64,000 nt of DNA, from positions 8,790 through 72,789 of the forward strand of contig JAXGQX010000002.1 in NCBI GenBank assembly GCA_040766225.1, read 5' to 3'. This DNA is from Bacillota bacterium. Its GTDB lineage: Bacteria; Bacillota; Sulfobacillia; Fermentithermobacillales; Fermentithermobacillaceae. Below the pieces are notes generated by a model that did not search any database, was not told the DNA's origin, and saw only the letters and a list, made by a program, of their open reading frames with translations. Made by a program: the position numbers and the translations under genes. Below are positions 5,436 to 36,063 of the stretch, in pieces; position 1 is the stretch's first letter; every line of letters starts with the position of its first letter.

Positions 5436-5765
5436 GTGGGATATGAGGTGTTCGGGAGCAACAAAATGGTGATCGAGGGGCTGCTGACTCTGGATGACAT
5501 AATGCTTGAAGTCCCGGGGAAAGAACTCCGGCTCATCGGGGACAGGAAAGGGGTCAGTCTACTGCAATCTGACCTGACTGTCTGGCGGCTGAAGATCGCG
5601 GTATCCCCGGTTGGGCTGAACCGAAGGTTCATCGCGTGGGCAAGGCCAACCGGCACCGGAGGCGTCGTGTTCGCGGTCGAACGTATGGAATGGAAGGACA
5701 TTAGCCGCCGCGGTTCCGGTCCCGGATATCAGGTCTATACCGTGTACTATGTAGGCCCTGTCTAG
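5436..5765 (+). CDS. Hypothetical protein, 109 aa, GTG start
   Basis: Strong G/C preference at codon third positions in this frame, unlike neighbouring S/T/R-rich shadow ORFs. No family recognised. Confidence 0.3.
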   Translation: MGYEVFGSNKMVIEGLLTLDDIMLEVPGKELRLIGDRKGVSLLQSDLTVWRLKIAVSPVGLNRRFIAWARPTGTGGVVFAVERMEWKDISRRGSGPGYQVYTVYYVGPV

Positions 5766-6599
5766 ATTGGGCGGCCTGAGATAGCTGCCTTGCTAAGACA
5801 AGAGCAATGGGAGGAGATACCCTTGGAACCTAACGAGTTGCTGATAAGGTTCAAGCAGTTCCGAAGTGCGTCATGGTATTGCTGCTACGCTCCTGGTTTT
5901 GGGAGTCGTCGCCTCGGTCGCGGTTTTGTGAAACTGCGTGCCCTCGAAAACCGACCGGTCTACGTGAGCTGTTCGGGCTCTTCATATAGCGGTCCGCGGG
6001 CAGACGGGATCGCGAGTTCGGACTTGGACCCCGCTTTGGATCTCGCGGGAGCAAGGCCTCGCCAGCGTCAGTTTCACGTTCAGACTTGCCAGCAAGATCG
6101 GGCTCAGGAGTTGAAGCTGCCTATAAAGGCTCGAAGGACAGGACGTGTGGCAGACTGCCCCCATGAAGGCCGACCGGGATGAGCCTCTTACGCCTGCAGC
6201 ATCTGTCCCCATGGACGTCAACAGTTCGAGTACAGGCTTGAGCAGGTAATCGGAGGCGAGATAGTACGCGTCCCGTAGGGACTCAGGTGGCAGCTCTGGT
6301 CGGCAACGGGGACGGCTACGTCCATCTCTTCCCGCAAAGCGACAAATCCGGGGAGTTGCGGAGTGTCGCAGCACCCGTATTCCAAGATCAATGCTCTCCA
6401 AATCGACCGGGGTCCGGCTTAAAGGTCAACAGGGCGGGACAGAAGCAGCCGAAGAACATGTTCTCAAGGATGAAGACGGGAAAGGGCAGTCAAATGCTCA
6501 GGCTATACCTGAACCCTGACGGGATTAGGGATGTGGATGTGACGGTGGTTTACAAAGACAGGGTGTCCCCGCGAGCTGCCTGTGATGTGAAGCTTGGTG

Positions 6600-6937
6600 C
6601 CATGATTATCCTCACATGCACCGGATTCTCGCCATAGTTTTCTTGGCGTTTACCCACTCGACTATGTCGTGCACCAGGTTTGAGCCGCCTCCCATGAAGA
6701 GGCCTGTGATGGCCGGGCCCACCGGGCGCCACTGGGCTGATGCCGAACATCGCGAAGAAGTCCAATCCGGAGCCGTAGGCGAGGAATAGGGAAAGCGCCA
6801 TCGCCAAGAGCGTCGGGACCTGGATCCCTAAGACTCTCTTTTTGTCCAGTGCGGGCAGGACGTTCATGACAAGTTCGACTAGGCGCTCGACCGCGAGGCC
6901 AGACCCATGTAGCCAGTAATCCACTGGCGGTGTTCAT
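6600..6937 (-). pseudogene. Small membrane protein, frameshifted (at least 2x); weak resemblance to the DUF378 family
   Basis: GGAAAGGAGGG ribosome-binding site then ATG at 6937. Hydrophobic segments ALDKKRVLGIQVPTLLAMALSLFLAYGSGLDFFAMFGIS and FMGGGSNLVHDIVEWVNAKK lie in different frames. Confidence 0.3.
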
Positions 6938-8830: not shown

Positions 8831-9020
8831 TTGGAGGACCCAGCCGACCTGGCTCCGCGACTTTGGGGGGCTAGTCTATCGACGTGGGAAGTCTTGGCGT
8901 CTTATTGCCGGGAAAATGCCAAGGACAGGGTATCGAGAGGGAACACAGCGCCGCCATCGTCGTCTATACGGGTGGCGCGGCTCCTTGCGCCGTAAGTTCT
9001 GACACAAGGAGGTTTCTACC

Positions 9021-10290
9021 ATGCCGACGTCTCTTAGCCGGAATCTCGGTGATCGCGCTATCACGCGTATTGCTCTGCATTCTCGTCTGCGCCCTCAGTG
9101 TCCTCGCGCTCGCAGGCTGCGCGACGAAGCCCAACCCTGTCAATGCTACCCCAGCTAAGAACACGGTCTCTTTCGCAAAGAGGAGCGCTTCCTTTGGAAT
9201 TGACCTGTTCAAGTCCATCTACGACCCCGCCGACTCCATGAATATCGTTATGTCGCCGTTCAGCGTAACCGAAGCGCTGGCGATGGCCCTAAACGGCGCG
9301 TCAGGCGAGACATTGGAGGACATGAGCCGCGTCCTCAACTTCGGAGACTTGACGATCCCGGAGATGAACGCCGCCAGTGAGGAACTCTGCGCCATATTGA
9401 TGGGTTCTGACCCTACAAGGCAACTCCTCTTAGCCAACTCAGTCTGGCTTCGGGATGGCTACCCTTTTGATAAGGACTTCATCAATTCAGTGGAAGAGGC
9501 GTTCGAGGCGGAGGCACGCGTCCTGGATTTCACTTCTCCCAACTCTGTCCGAAAGGTCAACGATTGGGTGAAACAAAAGACCAAGGGCAAGATCGAATCC
9601 ATCCTGGACAGCATTGGCGTAAATGACCTGGCATACCTGGTAAACGCCATTTACCTGAAAGCCGATTGGTCAGACGAGTTTGACCCGAACAAGACAAGCG
9701 ACGCGCGCTTCTCCACGCCAACTTCGCAGGTGACGGTCAAGATGATGCGCAGAAAGGCTGAGTACGCGTATCTCTCTGGAGACGGGTTCCAGTCGGTTCG
9801 AATACCCTATGGCGGGGGCAGCACGGCCATGTACGTTTTCTTGCCTGACGAGGATGTGGGACTTGAAGGTTTCATTGAAGACATGGCCTCCCAGAACTGG
9901 GAGCGCTGGATGGAGAGCTACCAGAAAAAGACGGTCTCCTTGGGGATGCCGCGGTTCACCGGGAAATATGAGACGCTCATGAACGACGCTCTGAAATCTA
10001 TGGGAATGGATATCGCTTTCGACTGTGATCGGGCTGATTTCCGGGGAATGTCCTCAACGAAAGATCGGAACCCCGGCATATTCATCGGTAGGGTCATCCA
10101 CAAGGGTTTCATCTCCGTAGGGGAGAAAGGCACAGAGGCTGCCGCCGCGACCGGGGTGGTCATGGAAACTAAATCAATGCCCTTAGAACCTGAGTTGTCG
10201 GTGGTCTTGAACCGGCCGTTTTTCTACGTCATAAGAGACGATGTCACCGGAGCTGCGCTATTCATGGGGACGGTCGTGGATCCGAGTTAG
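9021..10290 (+). CDS. Serpin (serine protease inhibitor), predicted lipoprotein; 1-nt indel right after the start codon
   Basis: Serpin core motifs (NIVMSPFSVTEALAMALNGA, hinge GTEAAAATGVVME, C-terminal PFFYVIRD). AAGGAGG ribosome-binding site plus ATG at 9021 is in frame 0, while the signal peptide RRLLAGISVIALSRVLLCILVCALSVLALAGC (lipobox LAGC) is in frame 1 (ORF 8884-10290). Confidence 0.8.
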
Positions 10291-10367
10291 ACGGGGATTT
10301 GCTGTCGCAACCCCGTGACACTTGCCCAGGTGTGGATCCGAGCACGTGAAGGGAGGGCAGCCTTAAA

Positions 10368-11198
10368 ATGGGAGGAAACCCGGATACCGAGTCGAAACAC
10401 GCGGGCGAATCAACGCGCGGGCGCATCCTCAAGATGAGGCTGGGCGTGAACCCGAACTCGAGCGGCCACGGAATGCTTTTTGGATCCATGTTTTTCATCC
10501 CTTACTCAGTGCTGTCTTCAATCTTGGCCAATGCGGTGATCTCCAACCTCGATGATGCGCTGGTTTCCTACCGCGATGCCCGATCTCTGCCGTCACGCGG
10601 AGACCGCGCCCTTACGACGGCCGTATGGACTTTGGCGTGGGCGGGCTTTGTCGCGATCTGGGCTGTGCTCCTGTCGTCGATGATCTTGATTAAGGCTCCG
10701 ATATGGGGTTGGGTACTGCTAGGCGCTGCCGCGACGCTTCCCATCGCCTTCTTGGCTTACCGCGCCGCGGTCAATCCGGCTGTGGTCCTTCTGGCCAAGC
10801 GCTCTCTAAAGCCGTGTCTCTGGGGTCTCGTCCTTGGCATTTTCACGGTGCAGGTGTTTGACCCGAGCGCGAGAGATGATCTGTTGGCCGTGATTCTACC
10901 GTACGGCTACGCTGCGCCGCTTGCTATTGTGCTCGCTGCGGGTGCAGCCAGAGCGGCAGGGATTATCCGCCGAGTCGCAAACCTGTCGATTGCCTGCATA
11001 GCCTACGTGATGGTTGGACTCGTCTTGGTTTTCCCGATGCCGCCAATCTCCAGGACTGCCTATAATCCCGTTAGCTTGTTCTTCCCGTTCTGGGGTCTCG
11101 GTGTTCCCTGGGCCGTGGCGATATTATCCCTCATGAGGTTAACGATGACCGTTGCTGTCGGCCCTGATGCGTCCGAGACCGTAGACCCCCTGCCGTGA
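10368..11198 (+). CDS. Polytopic integral membrane protein (about 7 TM), unknown family
   Basis: GAAGGGAGGG ribosome-binding site; hydrophobic helices throughout; stop overlaps the start of the next gene (GTGA), indicating translational coupling. Confidence 0.6.
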   Translation: MGGNPDTESKHAGESTRGRILKMRLGVNPNSSGHGMLFGSMFFIPYSVLSSILANAVISNLDDALVSYRDARSLPSRGDRALTTAVWTLAWAGFVAIWAVLLSSMILIKAPIWGWVLLGAAATLPIAFLAYRAAVNPAVVLLAKRSLKPCLWGLVLGIFTVQVFDPSARDDLLAVILPYGYAAPLAIVLAAGAARAAGIIRRVANLSIACIAYVMVGLVLVFPMPPISRTAYNPVSLFFPFWGLGVPWAVAILSLMRLTMTVAVGPDASETVDPLP

Positions 11199-12337
11199 AG
11201 GTCCATAGGATACGCTTTGAGCATTTCGGCGGCATCATAGCCACCGACGAACCCGCGACGTTGCTGTGGGTGGATAGGGATTACTTGCGAGCCAGAGGGT
11301 TTGACGGTGGCACGGTATGGGAGGGAACAGATCCGGGCTTCCTATCGGGACCTGTCGAGGTAGAGATCGCGATCACGGCTCGCTGCAACCTCAGGTGTCC
11401 CTGCTGCTACACCTCGGCGGAACGGGGGGGACCGGACGTGTCGCTTAGGGCCGTCATCAGGGCTCTCGACGCCGCCGCCCGCGCAGGCGCTTTCCACGTC
11501 GCTTTCGGCGGCGGGGAACCCCTTATCCATCCGGACTTACTACGCATGGGCCGCGCTGCCCGCGAGCGAGCGTTGCTGCCATCGCTTACGACCAACGGAC
11601 GTTTGGTTACTCCCAGGTGGGCGAAGCAAGCGAAGGGTCTGTTTCCCCGCGTGAATGTCAGCATCGACTTGCCAGGCGGTCCACGGGATCCGGCGATGAC
11701 GCTGGACGAGTCGCTCGGTGCTGTCAGGACTCTTGTCGATAGCGGCATTACGTGTGGCTGCAACCTCATTCTGACGGAGGACATCATCCCCCAACTCGAC
11801 CGCGCGTTTTCCGAGGTCTCTAAGGCTGGGGCAGACAGCTTGATGCTCCTTAGGGCGAAACCTTCCGGGCGGGGCAGGGACGAATACGAGAGGATGCGCT
11901 TGTCCGGCCCGACCCAGTCCGCTTTAGTACCGCGCTTACTAGAGTTGTCCGAGGGCCACAAACTTCCCTTTCACCTTGACTGCGCTTTCGCGCCACTTCT
12001 TATGACCTCGCAAGTGTCACGCCGGCGCCTGGAGGACCTGGGCGCGTACGGCTGTATCGCGGGGGACTTGCTGGCTACCGTCGATCCCGATGGCCTGGTC
12101 CACCCTTGCAGTCACCTAGACTTCACCGTGGGCCGGATTGAGGACCTGCCAAGTTCGTGGACGGACGGGTCCGCCTGGGGCGCTTTCCGTGACCGCGACT
12201 CTCGCCTGACAGGGAAATGCTCTAGATGCGGCGTTAAGGACCTCTGCCGCGGCGGATGCGCTGTCGTCAACGCACATTACGGCCTCGGGCTCGACCAACC
12301 AGATCCCGGTCTAGCTTGCAGCCCGCGCTCGGTGTAG
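11195..12337 (+). CDS. Radical SAM/SPASM-domain protein with an N-terminal RRE-like element of peptide-modifying rSAMs
   Basis: CNLRCPCCY CxxxCxxC cluster. N-terminal IRFEHFGGIIATDEP...LLWVDRD resembles the leader-binding N-terminus of SuiB/streptide-type maturases. Cys-rich C-terminus (CSRCGVKDLCRGGCAV) is consistent with SPASM/twitch auxiliary clusters. Confidence 0.8.
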   Translation: MKVHRIRFEHFGGIIATDEPATLLWVDRDYLRARGFDGGTVWEGTDPGFLSGPVEVEIAITARCNLRCPCCYTSAERGGPDVSLRAVIRALDAAARAGAFHVAFGGGEPLIHPDLLRMGRAARERALLPSLTTNGRLVTPRWAKQAKGLFPRVNVSIDLPGGPRDPAMTLDESLGAVRTLVDSGITCGCNLILTEDIIPQLDRAFSEVSKAGADSLMLLRAKPSGRGRDEYERMRLSGPTQSALVPRLLELSEGHKLPFHLDCAFAPLLMTSQVSRRRLEDLGAYGCIAGDLLATVDPDGLVHPCSHLDFTVGRIEDLPSSWTDGSAWGAFRDRDSRLTGKCSRCGVKDLCRGGCAVVNAHYGLGLDQPDPGLACSPRSV

Positions 12338-12490
12338 ACCAACCTGATCCTGGCCTGGCTTGCAGCCCGTGCGCGATCTAGACCAACCAGACCCTAGCCT
12401 GGCTTGCAGCCCGGGCGCAGTGCAGACCAACTTGATCCTGGCCTGGCTTGCAGCCCGGGCGCGATCTAGACCAACCAGATCTTGGCCTAG
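12293..12490. repeat. Tandem repeat, 44-bp unit x about 4.5 (GACCAACCAGATCCTGGCCTGGCTTGCAGCCCGGGCGCGATCTA), begins inside the last codons of the rSAM gene
   Basis: Direct reading: units at 12293, 12337, 12381, 12425 and a degenerate fifth. Confidence 0.85.
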
Positions 12491-12621
12491 ATAGACTGCA
12501 GCCCGCACGCTCTTCGCACCGACAAGATCCCGGCCCTAAGCCGAATCCAAGTTCGATCTCGGCTCGATGCGCCGTCCGACCCCGTGCCGTAGTTGCCGAC
12601 GCCTTCATTCTCCCACTCCGA

Positions 12622-13020
12622 GTCATCAGAAACTGACACCTCTGGCACTAGGTCGTCAGCCATTGACGACTTCCTACCGCGGAGTCATCAGCCCGTGACG
12701 CCTTGCCGGCGCCGAGTCATCAACCACTGACACCTCTGGCGCCGAGAGTCGTCAGCCATTGACGACTTCCTATCGAGGAGTAGTCAGCCGGTGACACCGC
12801 CTGCGGCTAGTCGTCAACCACTAACACCTCTGGCACTAGGTCGTCAGCCATTGACGACCTTCCTACCGCGGAGTCATCAGCCCGTGACGCCTTGCCGGCG
12901 CGGAGTCGTCAACCACTGACACCTCCGGCGCTGGGTCGTCAGCCATTGACGACTTCCTACCGCGGAGTCGTCAGCCCGTGACACCTTGCCGGCGCCGAGT
13001 CGTCAACCACTGACACCTCG
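12622..13020. repeat. Higher-order tandem array of about 12.7 units of 30-33 bp in three alternating variants A-B-C (96-bp super-unit x about 4.2). Each unit starts GTC[G/A]TCA and carries a short inverted repeat; the B unit is GTCGTCA-GCCAT-TGACGAC.
   Basis: Units located at 12622, 12652, 12684, 12716, 12748, 12780, 12810, 12840, 12873, 12905, 12935, 12967, 12999. Stop codons in all six frames. No ORF of 60 aa or more between 12637 and 12956. Confidence 0.85.
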
Positions 13021-13149
13021 ACACCGCTTGCCCAAAATTCGGCACAAAGCATATGCGAAGTCATCTTGCGAACAGGCGCGACGTCTTGTACTATTGAGGC
13101 GTGGAGGTGACGGTTCCATGACAACGAGATTGCCCGGCAGGGCAGGCCT

Positions 13150-13316
13150 CCTAGAGCCCCAGCCACCGGCACTCCTAAGCCCCAGCCACCGGCACTCCTA
13201 GAGCCCCAGCCACCGGCACACCTAGAGCCTCAGCTATCGGCGTTCCTACGGCTCCTGTCAATCGCATTCCCACGGCCCCTGCCACGAGTATGCCCACCGC
13301 TTCAGTGGCCGCGTCG
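13150..13316. repeat. Tandem repeat, 24-bp unit x about 7 (CCTAGAGCCCCAGCCACCGGCACT, progressively degenerate), running into the 5' end of the antitoxin ORF
   Basis: Direct reading. Confidence 0.8.
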
Positions 13317-13616
13317 CCTGGGACTCCGACAAGCCTTCAACCTGCCTCTTCAGCGGGCCCGGCGGATACCGCGGCAACTGTCTACACCACAGTTAGCAGC
13401 CGGTTTCAAACCGTCATTCCGTCCGAGATCCGAGAGAAGTTTGATGTGCGAGAAGGTTCCCGGCTTATGTGGCTCGACAGGGGAGATTCCATCGAGGTGG
13501 TGCCTGTCCCGGTTAAGCCCTGGAAGGCGTTTCGTGGGGCTGCGCGGAGAAGCAAGATGTTGCTCAAAGGCGATGGTGAACAGGAAACTCTACTTGATGG
13601 AGACGATAACCCATGA
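13290..13616 (+). CDS. AbrB/MazE/SpoVT-fold antitoxin (VapB-like) with a Pro/Ala/Thr-rich N-terminal extension of about 30 aa
   Basis: TVSSRFQTVIPSEIREKFDVREGSRLMWLDRGDSIEVVPV matches the SpoVT_AbrB swapped-hairpin domain. 4-bp overlap with the downstream PIN gene. Confidence 0.7.
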   Translation: MPTASVAASPGTPTSLQPASSAGPADTAATVYTTVSSRFQTVIPSEIREKFDVREGSRLMWLDRGDSIEVVPVPVKPWKAFRGAARRSKMLLKGDGEQETLLDGDDNP

Positions 13617-14052
13617 GCGAGGCGTACCTTCTCGACACCACCTCCATTCTCGCGTTGTACCGCGATGAGGCGGGAGCCGATACCGTCGAGGAGCTTTTCG
13701 AAAAGCGAGAACGCGATGGGACAGAGTTGCTCGTTGCCTCAGTCACCCTCTTTGGGATCATGTGGATGGCCATGTCGGAGCAAGGTGAGGACAAAGCCTT
13801 TCGACTTCTACTAGACATCCGAGGTCTCAACATGCTGGAAGTTTGGCCTGACGAATCGATTCTTTGACGGCTGCCCGGCTGAAGCAGACGGGCCTCAGCG
13901 ACTCAGGGGCGTTGATAGCATCTTCAGCTTTGGCCAAGGGAGCCGTGCTTGTGCACAAGCGTCCAGAGTACAGAAGACTCGCCGAAGCCGACCGTGGGCT
14001 ACGCGTCAAAGCGTTGGACATCTCGTCGAGAGGCTCTTCTACTGGCTCTTAG
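13613..14052 (+). CDS. PIN-domain toxin (VapC-like), one frameshift near 13860
   Basis: N-terminal YLLDTTSILALYRDEAGADTVEELF plus LLVASVTLFGIMW. The C-terminal part SGALIASSALAKGAVLVHKRPEYRRL is in the next frame (ORF 13864-14052). Confidence 0.65.
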
Positions 14053-14058
14053 CCCTAT

Positions 14059-14150
14059 TCAGCCGCAGGTCGCCCGCCCGCCGCAGGTCGCCCGCCAGCC
14101 GCAGGTCGCCCGCCCGCCGCAGGGCACTCGCCCGCCGCAGGCGGTAAGAG
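14059..14150. repeat. Tandem repeat, 18-bp unit x 5 (CCGCAGGTCGCCCGCCCG)
   Basis: Direct reading. Confidence 0.8.
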
Positions 14151-14328
14151 CTAAGACGACGCCTGCGACCGCGGACAAAGCCTGCGTGTCCCTAGCAAGT
14201 TTTAGGCGAGGACTTCGCCTGCCTTGCGCTTTTTGACGCAGAGATCGCCTGATCCCAGGTTCTATGCGCCTTTTTCCTTGAATTTCCGCCAAAACGCCGA
14301 AGGCATACTACTGCCGGAGGTGCGGTCA

Positions 14329-15212
14329 ATGAACAGCTTTTCCGTAGCCTCAGGAAGAGCCCTCAAGTCCATAAGGCACCTCGTCAGTCAGGAAATCGGT
14401 GCCTGGGAGGCCCGAGGCGTTAGGATCAGCGTCAAAGAAAGTCAGGCAGGAGAGCTTCTGGTCTTGCGTTGTGAGGTCCCAAAAACCCGAGAGGTTGAGC
14501 CGCACGGAAATACTTCAGACGATAAAAGCTTCCGTAGCCAACGGATTGTCCCATATCATCGTCGACGAGTACGAGAAACTCCTGGTGGTCCGCCTGATCG
14601 ACGATAATTACGCGTACCTGTCCTCCATGACCGGGAGATCTAAAACGCAAGGCCATGTCAAAACTGGCCGGGCGGGACGGAGCTACGAGCATCGGGCACT
14701 CGGGACAGAGGAAGAGCCGGGTTTGGGCTAAACTGGCTGAATACCTGGAGCGAGAAGACGAAATCGTGCTGGAAGGCTTCATAACCTTTCGACTGAAGGA
14801 ATACCTGGAGGACCTGTTCGACACAGTTGAGGAGACCGTCGAGGATTACCTGACCGAACGTGAGTACAGGGAATTCCTAAAGCTTCTGAGACATTTCATG
14901 TCGCGACAGAAAGAGTCAACCTATCAGGTAAACATCGTGAGAGACGGGGTCCGGTACCAGGTGCTTGACGAGAAACTGAAACCTGTGTCCGGCGAGGTGG
15001 GAAGATTCTTGGATAGACCGCCTAGGGGGATCGACCTGGGTGTGGACGACCTAATCGTGAGCGCGGTGGTGACACTGGCTCCGGAACTGGTGGTTTGGCA
15101 CGGCAAGGTTGACGGTTCGCCGTGTTACGATCTCATACATGACCTCTTTGAAGGACGATTGCACGTCTGCCCCGGTTGTGCTCTGGACTCAGGCGGATCG
15201 CCGGTGGTATAA
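14329..15212 (+). CDS. ytxC: YtxC-like sporulation protein, 2 frameshifts (pieces in ORFs 14224-, 14399- and 14655-)
   Basis: GGAGGTG ribosome-binding site plus ATG at 14329. Lies immediately upstream of thrS as in Bacillus and Clostridia. C-terminal piece EYLEDLFDTVEETVEDYLTEREYREFLKLLRHF is typical of YtxC. Confidence 0.55.
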
Positions 15213-15224
15213 TGCCCAAAACAT

Positions 15225-15497
15225 ATAACGGCTGTGAAGAGGAAAGTACCTGAAGGTCTCGCAGAAGAGAGGGAAGGCCAAGGCTGAGAGCCTTCCTGCA
15301 GGCGACCGGAAGTGAACACCACCTCGGAGCCTCCGGCAGAAGCTCGCCCCGGACAGGGCAATCGAGATAATGCCGGCGCCAAGAGCGCGATACAGCAAGA
15401 CGAGGGCCGGCTAGCCTGATTCCTGATTATTGAGGGTAGCCTGGCCGTTAAGGGTGGAACCGCGGAAACCCCCGCCCCTTTTGGGACGGGGTTTTTT
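15225..15497 (+). promoter_or_regulatory. T-box riboswitch leader of thrS with terminator
   Basis: T-box sequence AAGGGTGGAACCGCGG at 15449-15465, followed by a GC hairpin and U-tract CCCCGCCCCTTTTGGGACGGGGTTTTTT at 15468-15497. Confidence 0.65.
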
Positions 15498-15586
15498 GTA
15501 TGTCCAACGGCTGTGAGTCGGCTGTGAATCGGTGGTGAATCGGTGGCGAATGTGGTGAATGCGGGGAATCAAAGGAGGCTATTGAT

Positions 15587-17540
15587 ATGTCTTTGGATGA
15601 AGTGCGAGTATCTTGCGGCGGAGCCGTCTGTGAGCGTCCCCAAAGACGGGACGTTCCTCGACGCCAAGAAGGCTTTGTCGTGGAAGAACGACGTGCTAAT
15701 GGTGTTGTCTGGAGGGGAACCCAAGGAGCTTAGGAGCAAGGTCCAGGGGAGTGTGACGTCGTCCCGTTGACCTTCGAAGACGAGCGAGCCGCTGGGCGCT
15801 CCGCACACCGCCGCTCACGTGCTCGCTCAAGCCGTAAAGCGGCTCTATCCGGGAGTACGATTGGGCATAGGCCCGGCGATTGACGAGGGCTTCTACTACG
15901 ACTTTGATCTAAAGAGCCCGTTCGTGCCGGAGGACCTGGAGAAAATAGAGGCCGAGATGAAGAAGATAGTCTCGGAGAACATCCCTGTCGTTCGCCAGGA
16001 AGTGGACAGGGAGACGGCAAGGAAGATGTTCTCCGACATGGGTGAGGACTACAAGGTCGAGTTGATAGACGACCTGCCTGAGGACTCGGTCATCTCCCTT
16101 TACAGGCAAGGCGAGTTCGTAGACCTGTGCGCCGGCCCTCACGTCCCGTCCACCGGCTACCTTAAAGCCGTGAAACTGCTGAACTTCGCGGGCGCGTACT
16201 GGCGCGGAGACGAGAAACGGCCTATGCTGCAGCGGATCTACGGTACGGCCTTCATGAGCCAGGACGACCTGAAGCAGTACCTCGACAAGCTGGAGGAAGT
16301 CAAGAAGAGGGACCACCGCAGGCTGGCCAAGGAACTGGACCTGTTCAGCATCCAAGAAGAAGGCGGCCCCGGCTTGGTCTATTGGCATGCCAAGGGCGCT
16401 CTGATTCGGGAGATAATCGAGGACTTCTGGCGCAAGGAGCACCGCAAGAGAGGCTACGATATCGTCTACTCGCCGCACATCGCCAAACTTGACCTCTGGA
16501 AGACGTCCGGGCACTGGAACTGGTACAGAGAGAGCATGTACGCTCCAATGGCCATTGAAGAAGTCGAGTACATGCTGAAGCCGATGAACTGCCCCTTCCA
16601 TATCCTGATGTTCAAGAACCAGACCAGGAGCTACAGGGACCTGCCAATGCGCATGGGCGAGCTTGGGACGGTCTACAGATACGAGCGTTCGGGCGTGCTC
16701 CACGGAGCCTTGCGCGTAAGGGGCTTTACGCAGGATGACGCTCACGTCTTCTGCACCCGGGAGCAGCTGGAAGACGAGCTGATAGGGGTCTTGGAACTGG
16801 CTCAGTTCATGCTGACGACGTTCGGCTACGCCGAGTACGAGTGTATGCTGTCGGTGAGAGACCCTGAGAACAAGGCCAAGTACGTCGGCGACGATGAGAG
16901 CTGGGCGTTGGCCCAGAACGCTTTGGAGCAGGCTCTCTTAAGAAAGAACCTTCCGTATACGGTCGAGGAAGGCGAAGCCAAATTCTACGGACCCGCCATC
17001 GACATCAAGGTTAAGGACGCTTTGGGGCGGCGCTGGCAGGGGCCCACCATCCAGGTGGACTTCAACAACCCCGAGAGGTTCGACGTCACCTATGTCGGAG
17101 AAGATGGGTTAAGGCACCGGCCCGTCATGATCCATAGGACCGTCTTAGGCAGCATGGAACGCTTTGTGGCAGGGCTGGTGGAACACTACGCCGGAGCTTT
17201 CCCGTTGTGGCTGTCTCCCACCCAAGTCACGGTCATTCCTATCGCCGACAAGATGGCGGGCTACGCAGAGAAGGTAGCTGCCGCGCTTCGAGAAGAAGGG
17301 TTCCGCGTGAACTGCGACCTCGGACACGAGAAGATGGGTTTCAAGATTCGGCAGGCCCAGATGCAGAAAGTCCCGTACATGCTCGTGGTCGGAGCCAGAG
17401 AAGAGGAGAGCGGGACGGTCTCTGTTCGTCACCGGGCGGGTGGCGACATGGGGGCCATGCCCCTGGATGCCTTCATCAGGGGGGCCAAGGAGGAACTGGC
17501 GACCAAGTCCCTTGAGATGCTGGTGAAGTCGCAAACGTAG
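15587..17540 (+). CDS. thrS: Threonyl-tRNA synthetase; N-terminal TGS region (15587-15820) carries at least 2 frameshifts, remainder intact (ORF 15819-17540)
   Basis: Class II aaRS motifs. HTAAHVLAQAVKRLYPGVRLGIGPAIDEGFYYDFD matches the ThrRS editing-domain start. Upstream frames give GTFLDAKKAL and VVPLTFEDE, matching the ThrRS N-terminus. Confidence 0.9.
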
Positions 17541-18702: not shown

Positions 18703-19061
18703 ATGCTCGCGTAAAAACCGGCTTAACCAACCGACATCGTCATAAGAAGATCCTGAAGCTCGCCAAGGGCTATTGGGGCAAGCGTTCAAAGTCCTTCAGG
18801 ATGGCCAACGAGACCGTTATGAAGGCGCTCCACTACGCCAGAAGGCACTGCCGGGAGAAGAAGAGAGAGTTTCGAAGCCTCTGGATTTCCAGGATTAACG
18901 CGGCCGCCCGGGTCAACGGTATGAACCACATAACATCTTCATTAACGGCCTTAAGAAAGCCGGGTCCAGATTAATAGCAGATAAGCCAGCCGACCTTAGC
19001 GGTTTCCGATGGCAAGGCTTTTACGGAACTGGTTACCATGGCAAGGAGCCAGCAAGCGTAG
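18703..19061 (+). CDS. rplT: 50S ribosomal protein L20, frameshifted right after the ATG (atgctcgcg in place of atgGctcgcg)
   Basis: Shifted frame reads [42 protein letters not shown]...[19 protein letters not shown]. Confidence 0.7.
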
Positions 19062-19087
19062 CGTGTCATCTAGATCGGGAGGGAGGA

Positions 19088-20411
19088 GTGTGGGCGACGC
19101 CGACCAGGCTGGTCGTGCTGTCCTTCGGTGCGGTTATCTCAAGTTGGGGACACTGCTCCTGCTTCTCCCGGTATCTACGGCGGATGGGGTTACACCCGGC
19201 GAAGTTGATGCCTTGTTTACGGCGACGGCGGTGTGCGTGACCGGGCTCGTAGTGCGGAACACGGCGACTTTTTGAGCACCGCTGAAAGGTCATCATAATA
19301 GCCCTGATTCAGATAGCGGTCCAGTTTCGATGACCTTCTCCACAGCCCATGCCCTGGTTGTGGGAAGACGTATCGGGCTGCGTGAGCGGTTGGTTATCCA
19401 AGAGCAGACAGGGCAGTGGAGACTGGCCGGGGTCGTCAATCTCATTAAGCGAATCATACTGGTTACCCTGGATTTGAGATAGCGGGCACTCGGGGTTTTT
19501 GGCTCAGCGTTTTGATGACCAGGGGGCTAAGGGGCATTCAGGCGGTATGGAACGGCCTGTTCCACGCCGCTTCGGGCAAGCCTTGTAACGCCGGATTCGA
19601 TATCCTGGGGAACTCCCTCATGGACTATCCGTCAAACGCGCTGGTTACCCTCACCATAGGGTTTCTCATCGTACTTAGCGGGCTGGGTTTTCATGTTATA
19701 GCGGATATCATCGTCCATCGCGGCAAATGGTCGGGCATGAGCCTTCACTGGAGGCTGGCCATCAAGGTCACTGTGACGTTGATAGCCATAGGGATCTCCT
19801 GGCTAATTTCCTGCCGGCGGAGCTGGGAACCTGGGCACCCTGGGTCCGCTCGACCCAGCGAAGGCTGCTCGCTTCATGGTTTCAGGCTGTTAGCCCGCGC
19901 ACGGCAGGGTTCAACAGCAATGCTGTGGAGAATCTGCTGCCCCCAACCGTCTTAGTGACAATGGCGCTCATGTTCATCGGAGCCTCTCCCGGAAGTACGG
20001 GGCGGCGGAGTGAAGACGACTACTTTCGCGGTAGCCGTCAAGTCCGTAGTGGCCACAATCCGCGGCGAGGAAGATGTGAATATAGGCAACAGGAGGGTAT
20101 CTCGACATCGTCTCCAAGGCCTTTGCCATTCTGATGCTGGCGGTGTTGATAGTCTTGGTGCAGGCACCCTAATCCTTACCTGGACCGAGTCTAGGCCCTT
20201 TATCGACCTCCTTCGAGGTCGTCTCCGCGTTCGGCACGGTGGGATTGACCAGGGGGATCACACCCTCCTTGTCTGTGGTGGGCAACCACGACTATCGCGT
20301 TCATCATGTTTGTGGACGGGCCGGCCCCGTCAGCCTGGCGTTGGCCCTTACAGGCAGCGGGTCGAAGGCGGAACCATCCGCTATCCCGAAGAGAAAAATC
20401 GGTGTCGGATA
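19088..20411 (+). CDS. ktrB: Ktr/Trk potassium uptake membrane subunit, multiple frameshifts
   Basis: Fragments LFTATAVCVTGLVV, FHAASGKPCNAGFD, MALMFIGASPGSTGGG and KTTTFAVAVKSVVATIRGEED across three frames. Confidence 0.7.
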
Positions 20412-20428
20412 AGGCAGGTGAAACACTG

Positions 20429-21076
20429 ATGGCAAAGCAGATAGCCGTCATAGGGTTGGGGCGTTTCGGCCATAGCCTGGCCGTTACCCTGTCCAGGCTG
20501 AACGTTGAGGTCTTGGCTGCGGATATCGACGAGGACCGGGTGAAAGCGATCTCAACGAAGTCACTACCGCTGTGCAGGCCGACGCCACCGATATGTCTGT
20601 CCTCTGGAACTCGGTATGCGCAACTCGATGTGGTGGCTGTCGGGATGAGCGGATTTGAGGCCAGCCTCATGACAACACTCCACCTAAAGGAACTGGGAGT
20701 AAAGAAAAGTAGTCGTGAAGGTTCAGTGATGTCCACGGCAAGATCTTGAAGCAGTTAAATAGATACGGTGGTTTTCCCGGAAAAGACATGGGAGAGAGAG
20801 TCGGTTTTTCCTTGTTTCAGGGAGCGTCATCGACCACATTGAACTTGCCGACAACTACACAGTGGCAGAAATCGTCATTCCCAAACGAAGACAGTCACGC
20901 ACGCTTGAAACCTAAACCTCAGAAACCAGCAGCCTCGACCGTACGCCATCAAGCGAAACAACGCTGTGAACGTCTCATTCAGCTCCACGAGCTCCCCCCA
21001 AGAGGGTGACGTTCTTGTCGCTATCGGGGAAACCGAAGGGGTCCATAGGCTTAACGCCGCGTTTGAGAAGAGGTAG
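20429..21076 (+). CDS. ktrA: Ktr/Trk NAD-binding RCK subunit, frameshifted
   Basis: MAKQIAVIGLGRFGHSLAVTLSRLNVEVLAADIDEDRV (RCK_N). C-terminal VLVAIGETEGVHRLNAAFEKR (RCK_C) in another frame. Confidence 0.7.
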
Positions 21077-33833: not shown

Positions 33834-36063
33834 TTAGGGAGTGCGCGGAGGGTTCTGTCCGCCAGGATTCTGTCCGCCAGGATTCTGTCCGCCAGGATTC
33901 TGTCCGCCAGGATTCTGTCCGCCAGGATTCTGCCCGCCAGGATTTCGCCCTCCCGGATTCTGTCCTCCGGGGTTCCATTCACCGGGCTCCAACCCCGGGA
34001 TCTCGATGGGGAACTCCATATCCGGGAACTGCGGCACGTGATAAGTGCACATGGAACTGGGCTGCCTCTCTTTGACGAACATCTCTTCCACGATTTCTTC
34101 CGGTGGGCAGAGCGGGCCAGGAAGCAAGCCCGACTTCTCACAGATCATGCTCGTTACGATGGTGCTAGGTTTGACGAAATCCTCGGGCGCGTGCTTAGCC
34201 GTGATAGTCGTCATCATTTCCTTCCAAATCCTCGCAGGGTAGGTTCCGCCTGTGATCTTCCATTGCTCCATGGTCTTCTCTTGGTCGAAGCCCATCCAGA
34301 CCACTCCGACGGTGTTGGGGGTGTAGCCGCAGAACCACGCGTCTTTCCAGTCGGAGGTGGTCCCCGTCTTTCCGGCGCACGGTATGCCGATGTCAGCTGC
34401 CCGCCCGGTTCCGTACTGCTCCTTAACGGCGCCTTGAGCATGCTTGTCATGAGATAGGCCGACTCTTCCGAGATAACCAGTTCTCTCTTGGGAACATGTT
34501 CCTCAAGCACGTTGCCGTTCTTGTCTTCTACCCGAATGATGCTTATGGGCTCAACTTTGATGCCCCTGTTGGCGAGAACGCCGAAGGCACCGTCATGTCC
34601 AAGGGCGACGCGCCGTAAGTGAGGCCGCCCAGCGCCAAAGATCTGGTGAGATCCGACCGCCCATCCGGCGTGTGACCCTTGACCAGCGAAGTGATACCTA
34701 GTCTTTCAGCCATTTCTAGGCTCTTGGGCAGGCCGATGATGTCTTGGACCTTGGCCGCCACGACGTTCAGGGATTCCCTGACGGCAAGCCGCATCGTTAC
34801 TAGGCCTTGGAACGAATAGGTGTAGTTTCTCGGAGAGAACGCCTCTTTGGTTATCGGGTCTACCCAGGTAACCGGCGCATCGTCTATGACCGTGGCCGGT
34901 CCCATTCCTTCCTCAAGAGCCGCGACGTACACCGCCAGCGGCTTGAACGATGAGCCGGGCTGCCTCTTGGCGTCGATCGCCCTGTTCCACCCGAGAGCAC
35001 CTTCCCGGTTCCGCCCGCCCACGATGGCCAATAGATGCCCCGTCTTGGCGTCCATAACGATGGAGGCCGCCTGAATGCTGTCGGTTCCCTCGTAAGGGAA
35101 CTCCTTGTCCAATACGGTGGCTATGGCTTTCTCGGCGGCTTCCTGGTCCGCCGGACTATAGGCGGTGTAGATCTTCATGCCGCCTCCGTATACCATCTCC
35201 GCGGGATACCTGGACAAGAGCTGTTTCAGTACGTAGTCCAGGTAATAACCGCCGGTGGAAACGACCTCCTGCCCGCCGGACTTGGCGTTTATGGGCGTCT
35301 TCTTGTACTCCTCGCATTCGGCTAAGGTAATGTAGCCGTACTCCGCCATTTGCTCCAAGACGGTGTTCCGCCTGGCCAAAGCGTTGTCCGGATGATCTGT
35401 CGGGTCGTAGTAGGAGGGTCCTTTCAGGAGTCCCGCCATCATAGCGGCTTCCGGGACGGTCAGTTCGGAAGCCGGCTTGCCGAAGAACGTCCTTGCTCCC
35501 GCTTCGATCCCGTAGGCGCCGCGACCGAACGGAACCTGGTTCATGTACATTTCCAGGATTTCGTTCTTCGTGTACTTCCTTTCAAGCATTATCGCGGCGG
35601 TAGCGTCCTGGACTTTTCTCTTGTAACTTTGAGCGTCGGTGAGGAATGCCTTCTTGGCTAGCTGCTGCGTGATGGTGCTTCCACCTTGAGGGGTGGAGCT
35701 GTCTCCGGTCAAGTTGACGACGAACGCCCGAATGATTGCCCTTAGGTCGACGCCGATATGGTCGTAGAAGCGGCAGTCCTCGGCGGCCAGAATAGCGTCC
35801 TTGACATGTTGGGGCAACTCATCGACGTCGATTAGCACCCTGTTCTCGGTGGAATGGAGTTCGGTCCAGACCCGCCCATCCTTGTCGTAGACAAACGAGG
35901 TCTGGCTCGGTTTCGGCTCCAGGTCAGCCAATGCGGGAAGCACTTCCTTGATGGCGGAAAACACAAAGGCCGCGGTGATCCCTCCGGTAATCAGGATTCC
36001 CGCGAGCAGAACGTACAGGATGATGTGAAAGACGTTGACCCGTCTGGTTTTCGTCTTGGCCAT
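33834..36063 (-). CDS. Class A penicillin-binding protein (PBP1A: transglycosylase plus transpeptidase) with a C-terminal (NPGGQ)x8 repeat tail; one frameshift around 34300-34540
   Basis: GT51 motifs (EDxRFYxH-like AAEDCRFYDHIGVD); TP motifs SSFKP and KTG. The C-terminal piece (ORF 33834-34304) ends in NPGGQ repeats encoded by 15-bp DNA repeats at 33851-33985. Confidence 0.85.

Follow-up and report, generated by a model that had tools for sequence, protein, structure and literature searches.

Minisatellites of the mycobacterial interspersed repetitive unit (MIRU) type, or variable number tandem repeats (VNTRs), are intergenic tandem repeats with units of 40-100 bp, known for example from Mycobacterium, in which one family occupies dozens of loci. 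Iterons and centromere-like arrays, such as plasmid parC and tubC, are another described kind of array. Here we describe a repeat island in a 64-kb stretch (the window) of contig JAXGQX010000002.1 from a Bacillota bacterium, in which four tandem-repeat families surround a vapBC toxin-antitoxin (TA) module in the spacer between a radical SAM (rSAM) gene and ytxC. The locus adds a further case to a familiar class of features, as an ordinary hypervariable spot, and on balance we favour an origin of the repeats by slippage or unequal recombination of local seed sequences within a spacer that is free of constraint and houses a TA module.

Like MIRUs, the repeats are head-to-tail units of tens of base pairs in intergenic DNA within or between operons, their copy number depends on lineage, and one of them starts within the final codons of the gene upstream, whose stop codon therefore falls inside the unit. 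In contrast to the dispersed single family of MIRUs, there are four families here, mutually unrelated in sequence and each limited to this locus within the window and all of the loci fetched from relatives, and the differences in copy number lie between species. One of the four, an array of palindrome-cored units of about 30 bp, resembles the repetitive extragenic palindromes (REP), the bacterial interspersed mosaic elements (BIME) and BOX elements in that its imperfect palindromes are clustered just downstream of a gene, and its three-unit super-repeat recalls the modular sub-units of BOX. It differs from them in having no other copy in the 64 kb or in 140 fetched loci, and in the direct rather than alternating orientation of its units; no REP-associated (RAYT-type) transposase was seen with it. 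With iterons and centromeres it shares at least ten direct repeats, a conserved core and a spacing (31.4 bp) of a whole number of helical turns, but it is chromosomal, has no partition or replication genes nearby and has been lost in close relatives that keep its neighbours, and a binding protein for it is only conjectural. The vapBC genes resemble other VapBC modules of variable chromosomal spots, with an AbrB/MazE-type antitoxin coupled to a PIN toxin through an ATGA overlap, a promoter of their own and variable presence; relatives carry HicAB, HEPN/NTase, RelBE-like and further VapBC pairs in the same neighbourhood. Unlike the usual VapBC, the antitoxin has an unusually long tail made of 8-aa repeats, and both genes are frame-broken in the assembly, probably through errors.

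Four repeat families cluster around vapBC

Tandem arrays were called over the whole window with Tandem Repeats Finder (TRF), and a second, independent repeat finder was concordant. Both programs returned all four families that an earlier reading of the letters alone (the sequence-only reading) had placed here, as head-to-tail copies of units in the 10-100-bp range typical of minisatellites. Along the plus strand these are a 44-bp repeat of 4.5 copies at 12293-12488 (82% match, 0% indels; 88 bp x 2.1 under an alternative scoring), an array at 12618-13019 scored as 32 bp x 11.5 or 94 bp x 4.3 (score 602), which had been proposed as 32/96 bp, a 24-bp repeat of 4.2 copies at 13148-13248, and an 18-bp repeat of 4.4 copies at 14062-14141 (GCCGCAGGTCGCCCGCCC; 0% indels), which lies in the vapC-ytxC spacer and had been counted as five copies after the toxin stop. 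The suspicion that such a density is unusual was also justified: the window holds five arrays with a TRF score of at least 100, four of which fall inside 1.9 kb (simulated P = 0.0006), and the related loci, 185 kb in total, hold only four arrays at that threshold. The fifth strong array of the window, 15 bp x 7.8 at 33849-33965 (AGGATTCTGTCCGCC), overlaps the 3' end of a minus-strand open reading frame (ORF) at 33834-34304 and may therefore be a coding 5-aa repeat.

The spacer varies between conserved flanks

An exact-protein look-up for contigs with the rSAM and VapB of the window gave no record, whereas the rSAM protein is matched at 100% on an NCBI contig. The closest relatives of the rSAM protein, at 82-83% identity, are encoded in metagenome-assembled genomes (MAGs) of 'Candidatus Fermentithermobacillaceae' or of unclassified Bacillota; the wider clade, DTU015, is a class of thermophilic fermenters, Ca. 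Fermentithermobacillia (PMC10215811). Related species have common flanks, with the serpin, membrane-protein and rSAM genes on the left and ytxC, thrS and infC on the right, and differ in what lies between them. Locus L002 runs from serpin, membrane protein and rSAM through 410 bp with a hairpin array to ytxC, thrS and infC, and has no vapBC (L003-L007 are five further assemblies of the same organism, and L009 is the same MAG contig again). In L136, and also in L137 and L138, rSAM is followed by 158 bp, a vapB of 155 aa, an intact vapC of 144 aa, 308 bp and ytxC, and TRF finds no tandem repeat in L136. In L141 the membrane-protein and rSAM genes are deleted, and the serpin gene is followed by some 40 bp left over from the 3' end of rSAM, roughly one degenerate array unit, a vapB of 92 aa, a vapC of 150 aa and the ytxC leader; only a negligible 10-bp repeat is reported there. 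In three species the vapBC module occupies one and the same position and keeps its promoter region. In other relatives the cargo 3' of rSAM is unrelated and includes PRiA4_ORF3, a HEPN/NTase pair, a UPF0236 transposase, HicAB and another VapBC.

Over the locus the window is about 72-78% identical in DNA to L136 and about 77-80% identical to L002. By blastn, the stretches specific to the window (12328-13003, 13139-13380 and 14021-14155) are exactly the repeat-bearing segments, from which we conclude that the spacer is a rearrangement hot spot and that the repeats are lineage-specific. The suggestion of a hypervariable or recombinogenic locus is supported by these differing contents within the same flanks in L002, L136, L141 and other relatives. 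Of the presence or absence and the copy-number variation that were to be compared across relatives, the former is plain and the latter is seen between species, with 4.3 super-units of the 94-bp period in the window, 2.8 in L002, about 1 in L141 and 0 in L136. The sequence-only reading had further held that the same gene order without repeats in a relative would point to an assembly artefact; L136 formally has this pattern, but at only about 72-78% identity it shows lineage-specific expansion and not assembly error. A somewhat similar situation occurs in L012 (MAG UBA3951), where the island 3' of the same rSAM gene holds three arrays of 31-bp TRF period (5660-5840, 6467-6625 and 6680-6850) just downstream of a RelBE-like TA pair. 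Two of these consist of an unrelated 31-bp unit and flank SLH-domain gene fragments, and the third is a 15-16-bp unit scored at period 31; together they suggest a clade-level tendency to carry repeats near TA pairs.

The same comparisons bear on the proposal that the island is the remnant of an integrated element, in which vapBC would have come on an element targeting the rSAM 3' end or the array, and the repeats would be stacked att-like duplications. Both vapBC and the membrane-rSAM cassette are present in some relatives and absent from others, array-unit sequence lies on either side of vapBC, and in L090 a second copy of the membrane-protein gene is fused to the last 117 rSAM residues (P0040) beyond an island with transposase and TA genes. 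The array-unit sequence is, however, the only bracket-like feature, and the repeats run head to tail and do not form a pair around an insert. A search for a nearby integrase had been proposed, and neither an integrase nor a transposase or other mobility gene was found among the ORFs and Pfam matches in or adjoining the island, where the neighbours are serpin, membrane protein, rSAM, YtxC and ThrRS and the flanks are syntenic housekeeping genes. Between 12.34 and 14.3 kb there is no ORF of at least 100 aa besides vapB, and blastn of the island against plasmids and phages gave no match. GC content is slightly raised at 12.2-13.4 kb (0.60-0.645), with negative GC skew, but this reflects repeat units that are rich in C and an rSAM gene of high GC. 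Given also that vapBC keeps one site and a conserved promoter in three species, we consider an element scar very unlikely.

The 44-bp, 24-bp and 18-bp repeats and their seeds

The rSAM gene (11195-12337, plus strand) is an ORF of 380 aa with Pfam Radical_SAM (E=3e-16) and SPASM domains, and the first copy of the 44-bp repeat consists of its last 14 codons plus the TA of its stop; the sequence-only reading had placed the start of the repeat in the last codons of this gene. This copy encodes the conserved C-terminus of the family, DQPDPGLACSPRSV*, in which the motif L-D/E-x-P-D-P-x-L-x-C is kept across 21 homologues. In total the repeat spans 12293-12540, with 4.5 clear copies followed by about one or two degenerate ones (the family reported by the second finder extends to 12535). 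Copies 2-4 retain the same 11 codons (DQPDPGLACSP), in shifted frames because 44 is not a multiple of 3. Within the first 33 nt of the unit, five of the seven variable sites are codon third positions, and by inspection four of those third-position changes are synonymous and private to the coding copy. This pattern is consistent with an ancient tandem duplication of the 3' end of rSAM, after which copy 1 alone was under purifying selection. The junction between copies 1 and 2 is also present in L142, a short-read contig of independent origin from a strain-level relative, which ends 6 nt into copy 2. A true period of 45 bp, with an in-frame C-terminal extension masked by a recurrent homopolymer error, was rejected, as the CSPRSV* of copy 1 matches the CSPRSF..., CSPRAA... 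and CSPRID... of orthologues.

The 24-bp repeat lies within the antitoxin gene. The vapB ORF as assembled (13290-13616, plus strand) matches Pfam MazE_antitoxin (PF04014, E=5.5e-8) and NCBIfam AbrB (TIGR01439, E=1.3e-11), but the gene is better placed at 13118-13616, starting from an ATG at 13118 (MTTRLPG...); its closest homologue, P0121 (84% identical), begins MTTKLPG. Upstream of this start are promoter-like hexamers (TTGCGA at 13066-13071 and, after 17 nt, TACTAT at 13089-13094) and a Shine-Dalgarno sequence (GGAGGTG, 13103-13109), all on the plus strand within 13066-13120 and, like the start itself, conserved by alignment in L141 and L136. With 8 of 12 consensus matches the hexamers fall under the 9/12 threshold of our promoter scan, hence their absence from its output. 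A direct repeat, C(A/G)TCTTG ... CGTCTTG with its halves about 20 bp apart (13062-13088), overlaps the hexamers; L141 and L136 conserve it too, which makes it a putative VapB operator. Given the conserved ATG, Shine-Dalgarno sequence and promoter, the 24-bp repeat must sit inside vapB; it covers 13148-13314 on the plus strand, with 4.2 clear and by eye about three degenerate units, one of them 23 bp. The count of seven units made from sequence alone was fair, whereas the description of the repeat as running into the antitoxin start did not hold. In the AbrB frame the units encode the 8-aa repeat TPRAPATG within the N-terminal tail of VapB. This tail varies in length from 63 nt in L141 and 123 nt in L136 to 262 nt in the window, measured from the ATG to the GTC at 13380, near which the AbrB domain begins, and at 262 nt the frame is broken as assembled.

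The PIN-domain toxin gene, vapC (13613-14052, plus strand), starts in the ATGA (13613-16) that contains the vapB stop, an arrangement of translational coupling. The module has two marks of VapBC, an antitoxin with an AbrB/SpoVT/MazE domain and a directly downstream, coupled PIN toxin. As assembled, vapC is split by a frameshift near 13866, where a 1-nt deletion has turned GG into G, and encodes Gly in the TLFE motif position; the frame-corrected product matches PF01850 (E=5.8e-9). An intact VapC of 146 aa, P0127, 99% identical and with Glu in TLFE, occurs in strain-level Logan contigs, and the deletion and the Gly are probably assembly errors or strain-private changes. The same explanation is the most likely one for the broken vapB and vapC frames and the 23-bp repeat unit as a whole. 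Because P0127 is intact and the assembly is rich in indels, we do not call vapBC a pseudogene. On the far side of vapC, the 18-bp repeat is without counterpart in the vapC-ytxC spacers of L136 and L141, which are non-repetitive.

A palindrome-cored array shared with one other species

The 32/94-bp array, delimited with both repeat finders, comprises 13 units of 30-33 bp at 12618-13029 on the plus strand, with a mean spacing of 31.4 bp and a 94-bp higher-order period of three units. The core of the unit is AGTnnTCA-N5-TGAnnnCT, and four units, designated type B, form nearly perfect hairpins whose 7-bp stem (GTCGTCA/TGACGAC) is extended by one closing pair. The L002 array (94 bp x 2.8) begins at the rSAM stop codon, in the same position, and is built from homologous units with the same core and the same mean spacing; it is carried by six independent Illumina-based assemblies of that organism, the one other species with an array. 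Class by class, units are 83-94% identical within a genome and only 53-68% identical between the window and L002, and such homogenisation within genomes is the pattern of concerted evolution or of independent expansion. A by-eye impression that the three unit classes are orthologous between the two species was not supported by these pairwise identities, and only the 3' half of type B is clearly shared. A remnant of that half (GACGAC...ACCGCGGA) lies to the right of vapBC at 14155-14175 on the plus strand. Its pattern recurs only in three B units of the array (chance expectation 0.02), so that array sequence brackets vapBC, and the absence of vapBC from L002 could be the result of recombination between units.

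Several identities for the array were considered and set aside. Its units abut, without the unique spacers of a CRISPR (clustered regularly interspaced short palindromic repeats) array, and CRISPR, T-box and attenuator readings are all excluded by its anatomy. Rfam gave no real match to it, whether the whole window was searched at the gathering score or the island at E<=5. Minus-strand resemblances to C/D-box RNAs reach only 12.7-15.3 bits against gathering scores of 37-38; these are at chance level and arise because TGATGA and CTGA occur in the units. A covariation test over 21 units gave no helix support (76.3% of cells paired versus 75.2% in shuffles), and the middle three of the eight hairpin pairs are unpaired in 9, 10 and 14 of 20 distinct units, so a selected RNA helix is not supported. 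The folding z-score is about -6.5 on both strands, which we judge uninformative because it is expected of any palindromic repeats.

The array might nevertheless be a functional cis element, either phased binding sites for a dimeric DNA-binding protein or REP-like hairpins in the 3' untranslated region that stabilise the rSAM transcript, with the other repeats being incidental. It stands at the same position in two species that are about 77-80% identical in DNA, its mean spacing in both genomes amounts to about three helical turns, and near-perfect type-B hairpins lie directly downstream of the rSAM stop. The outer AG/CT and inner TCA/TGA are invariant while the middle varies without compensation, which fits protein contacts better than a helix. 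Yet L136 has no array and L141 about one degenerate unit, although the flanking genes are retained, and there is no terminator-like T-run at the array. No partition gene or evident regulator gene is linked to it. Nor does it depend on VapB: L002 carries the array but no vapBC, and the reverse holds for L136. Its units are homogenised within each genome and 53-68% identical between genomes, as in drifting satellites, and a metagenome-wide (JGI) scan for three consecutive units returned 42 matches, all of them unrelated repeats. Taking these observations together, we regard a functional cis element of these kinds as unlikely. We think it distinctly unlikely that the phased palindromes are an undescribed chromosomal cis element, whether a protein-binding array or a recombination module for the capture and loss of TA cassettes, whose hairpin units could drive the neighbouring amplifications. 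Proof that the array binds a protein or brings about cassette exchange would widen its interest.

Assembly quality and the reality of the repeats

The window is 95.4% identical to L142 over 8.3 kb and looks like an unevenly polished long-read assembly. Between 4066 and 9040 the two differ by 5-14 gap events per 500 bp with few mismatches, while there are no gaps over 10500-12343. Genes for a histidine kinase, ytxC, the thrS 5' end and trkH/trkA are broken in the window yet intact in L142 and L002. Dense 1-bp indels are also found at 14500-14650, at 15750-15805 and at about 19000-21000, the thrS 5' end has three 1-nt deletions within 52 nt, and the trkH/trkA breaks are probable. The frames of vapB, vapC, ytxC and thrS as assembled are unreliable and, with such patchy 1-bp indels, none of the apparent pseudogenes (vapB, vapC, ytxC, the thrS 5' end, the histidine kinase and trkH/trkA) should be trusted.

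Could mis-assembly of noisy long reads then have made the repeats, or their copy numbers? The density of gaps against L142, the 1-nt indels that break ytxC, the thrS 5' end, vapB and vapC, and the intact VapC of strain-level relatives all speak for this, and the whole island is spanned by no independent sequence. The copies nevertheless differ by substitution: indels are at 0% in both the 44-bp and the 18-bp array, the former shows a codon-position pattern, and the sequence directly upstream (10500-12343) is gap-free against L142. That contig enters copy 2 of the 44-bp repeat by 6 nt and then stops, as is typical of short-read assembly at a repeat, and an array of homologous units is present in the six Illumina assemblies of the L002 organism. 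We conclude that assembly errors did not create the repeats, because the copies differ by substitutions, the first junction is present in L142 and L002 has its own array; an artefactual origin is highly improbable.

A model for repeat amplification in a dispensable spacer

Amplification of local seeds, the explanation we favour, would run as follows. The locus would be a non-essential, fast-evolving spacer between the rSAM gene and the ytxC-thrS operon, with vapBC as a resident addiction module, in which four short local sequences were each amplified head-to-tail in this lineage. The 44-bp seed is the last 14 codons of rSAM; the 32/94-bp seed a palindrome-cored unit of about 32 bp, of which one other species has the same core and the shared 3' half; the 24-bp (8-aa) seed part of the unstructured N-terminal tail of VapB; and the 18-bp seed a GC-rich piece of the vapC-ytxC spacer. 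We infer replication slippage and unequal recombination as the mechanism, which hairpin-forming units may promote, and amplification would be tolerated because no spacer sequence is under strong constraint. Coding selection would hold copy 1 of the 44-bp repeat while the remaining copies drift. Since array units flank vapBC to the left and to the right, the module could plausibly have been gained or lost by recombination between units. The repeats are probably without a dedicated function of their own.

Several points weigh against this model. No strain-level sequence spans the island, and copy-number variation, the hallmark of VNTRs, is seen between species only. The model calls for four or five independent amplifications within 3 kb against one in the rest of the window, a concentration that it does not account for. 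Two species share both the unit core AG..TCA-N5-TGA..CT and the mean spacing of 31.4 bp, which could reflect selection on a protein-binding array. Finally, the assembly of the window is locally error-rich, and copy numbers and single-base details are uncertain accordingly.

The locus is a well-documented case of the evolution of a dispensable bacterial spacer, with four independent minisatellite expansions that have traceable single-copy seeds and that surround a TA module present or absent among sister species. It also offers a case of repeat expansion within a disordered antitoxin tail, and candidate VNTR markers for an uncultured clade of thermophilic digester bacteria (DTU015, Ca. Fermentithermobacillia).

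Neighbouring genes

To the right of the island, the ytxC leader and ytxC (14176-15212, plus strand) form the synteny anchor, identified by Pfam YtxC (E=1.3e-36), alignment with L002 and blastn; as assembled here, 1-nt indels disrupt the ytxC frame. No other non-coding part of the locus is as well conserved as the leader (14176-14330), which over 48 comparable nt has about 92% identity with L141 and whose TTGAAT ... CATACTA may be a sporulation-type promoter. Upstream of thrS, which encodes ThrRS (15819-17540; Pfam/NCBIfam), a T-box leader at 15225-15482 scores 69.9 bits against the Rfam gathering score of 93; the L002 orthologue scores a similarly low 72.8, and we take the T-box of this clade to be simply divergent. 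Between the T-box terminator and the thrS start there is a fifth lineage-specific repeat near the locus, of 11 bp in about 4-5 copies at 15508-15569 (CGGCTGTGAAT-like), which L002 does not have.

To the left, the serpin gene (8884-10290; Pfam/NCBIfam) is followed by the membrane-protein gene (10368-11198; no family match). The latter overlaps the rSAM/SPASM gene by 4 nt to form a two-gene cassette, for which no precursor peptide gene was identified. This cassette stands behind serpin in the window and L002 and behind SbcCD in L088 and L089; it is deleted in L141, and in L090 it is partly duplicated as the fusion of membrane protein and rSAM C-terminus (P0040) described above. The 3' half of serpin and the 5' end of the membrane-protein gene (9500-10500) differ by 8-12% from L142, compared with about 1% for the rSAM gene, and this local divergence suggests a recombination tract.

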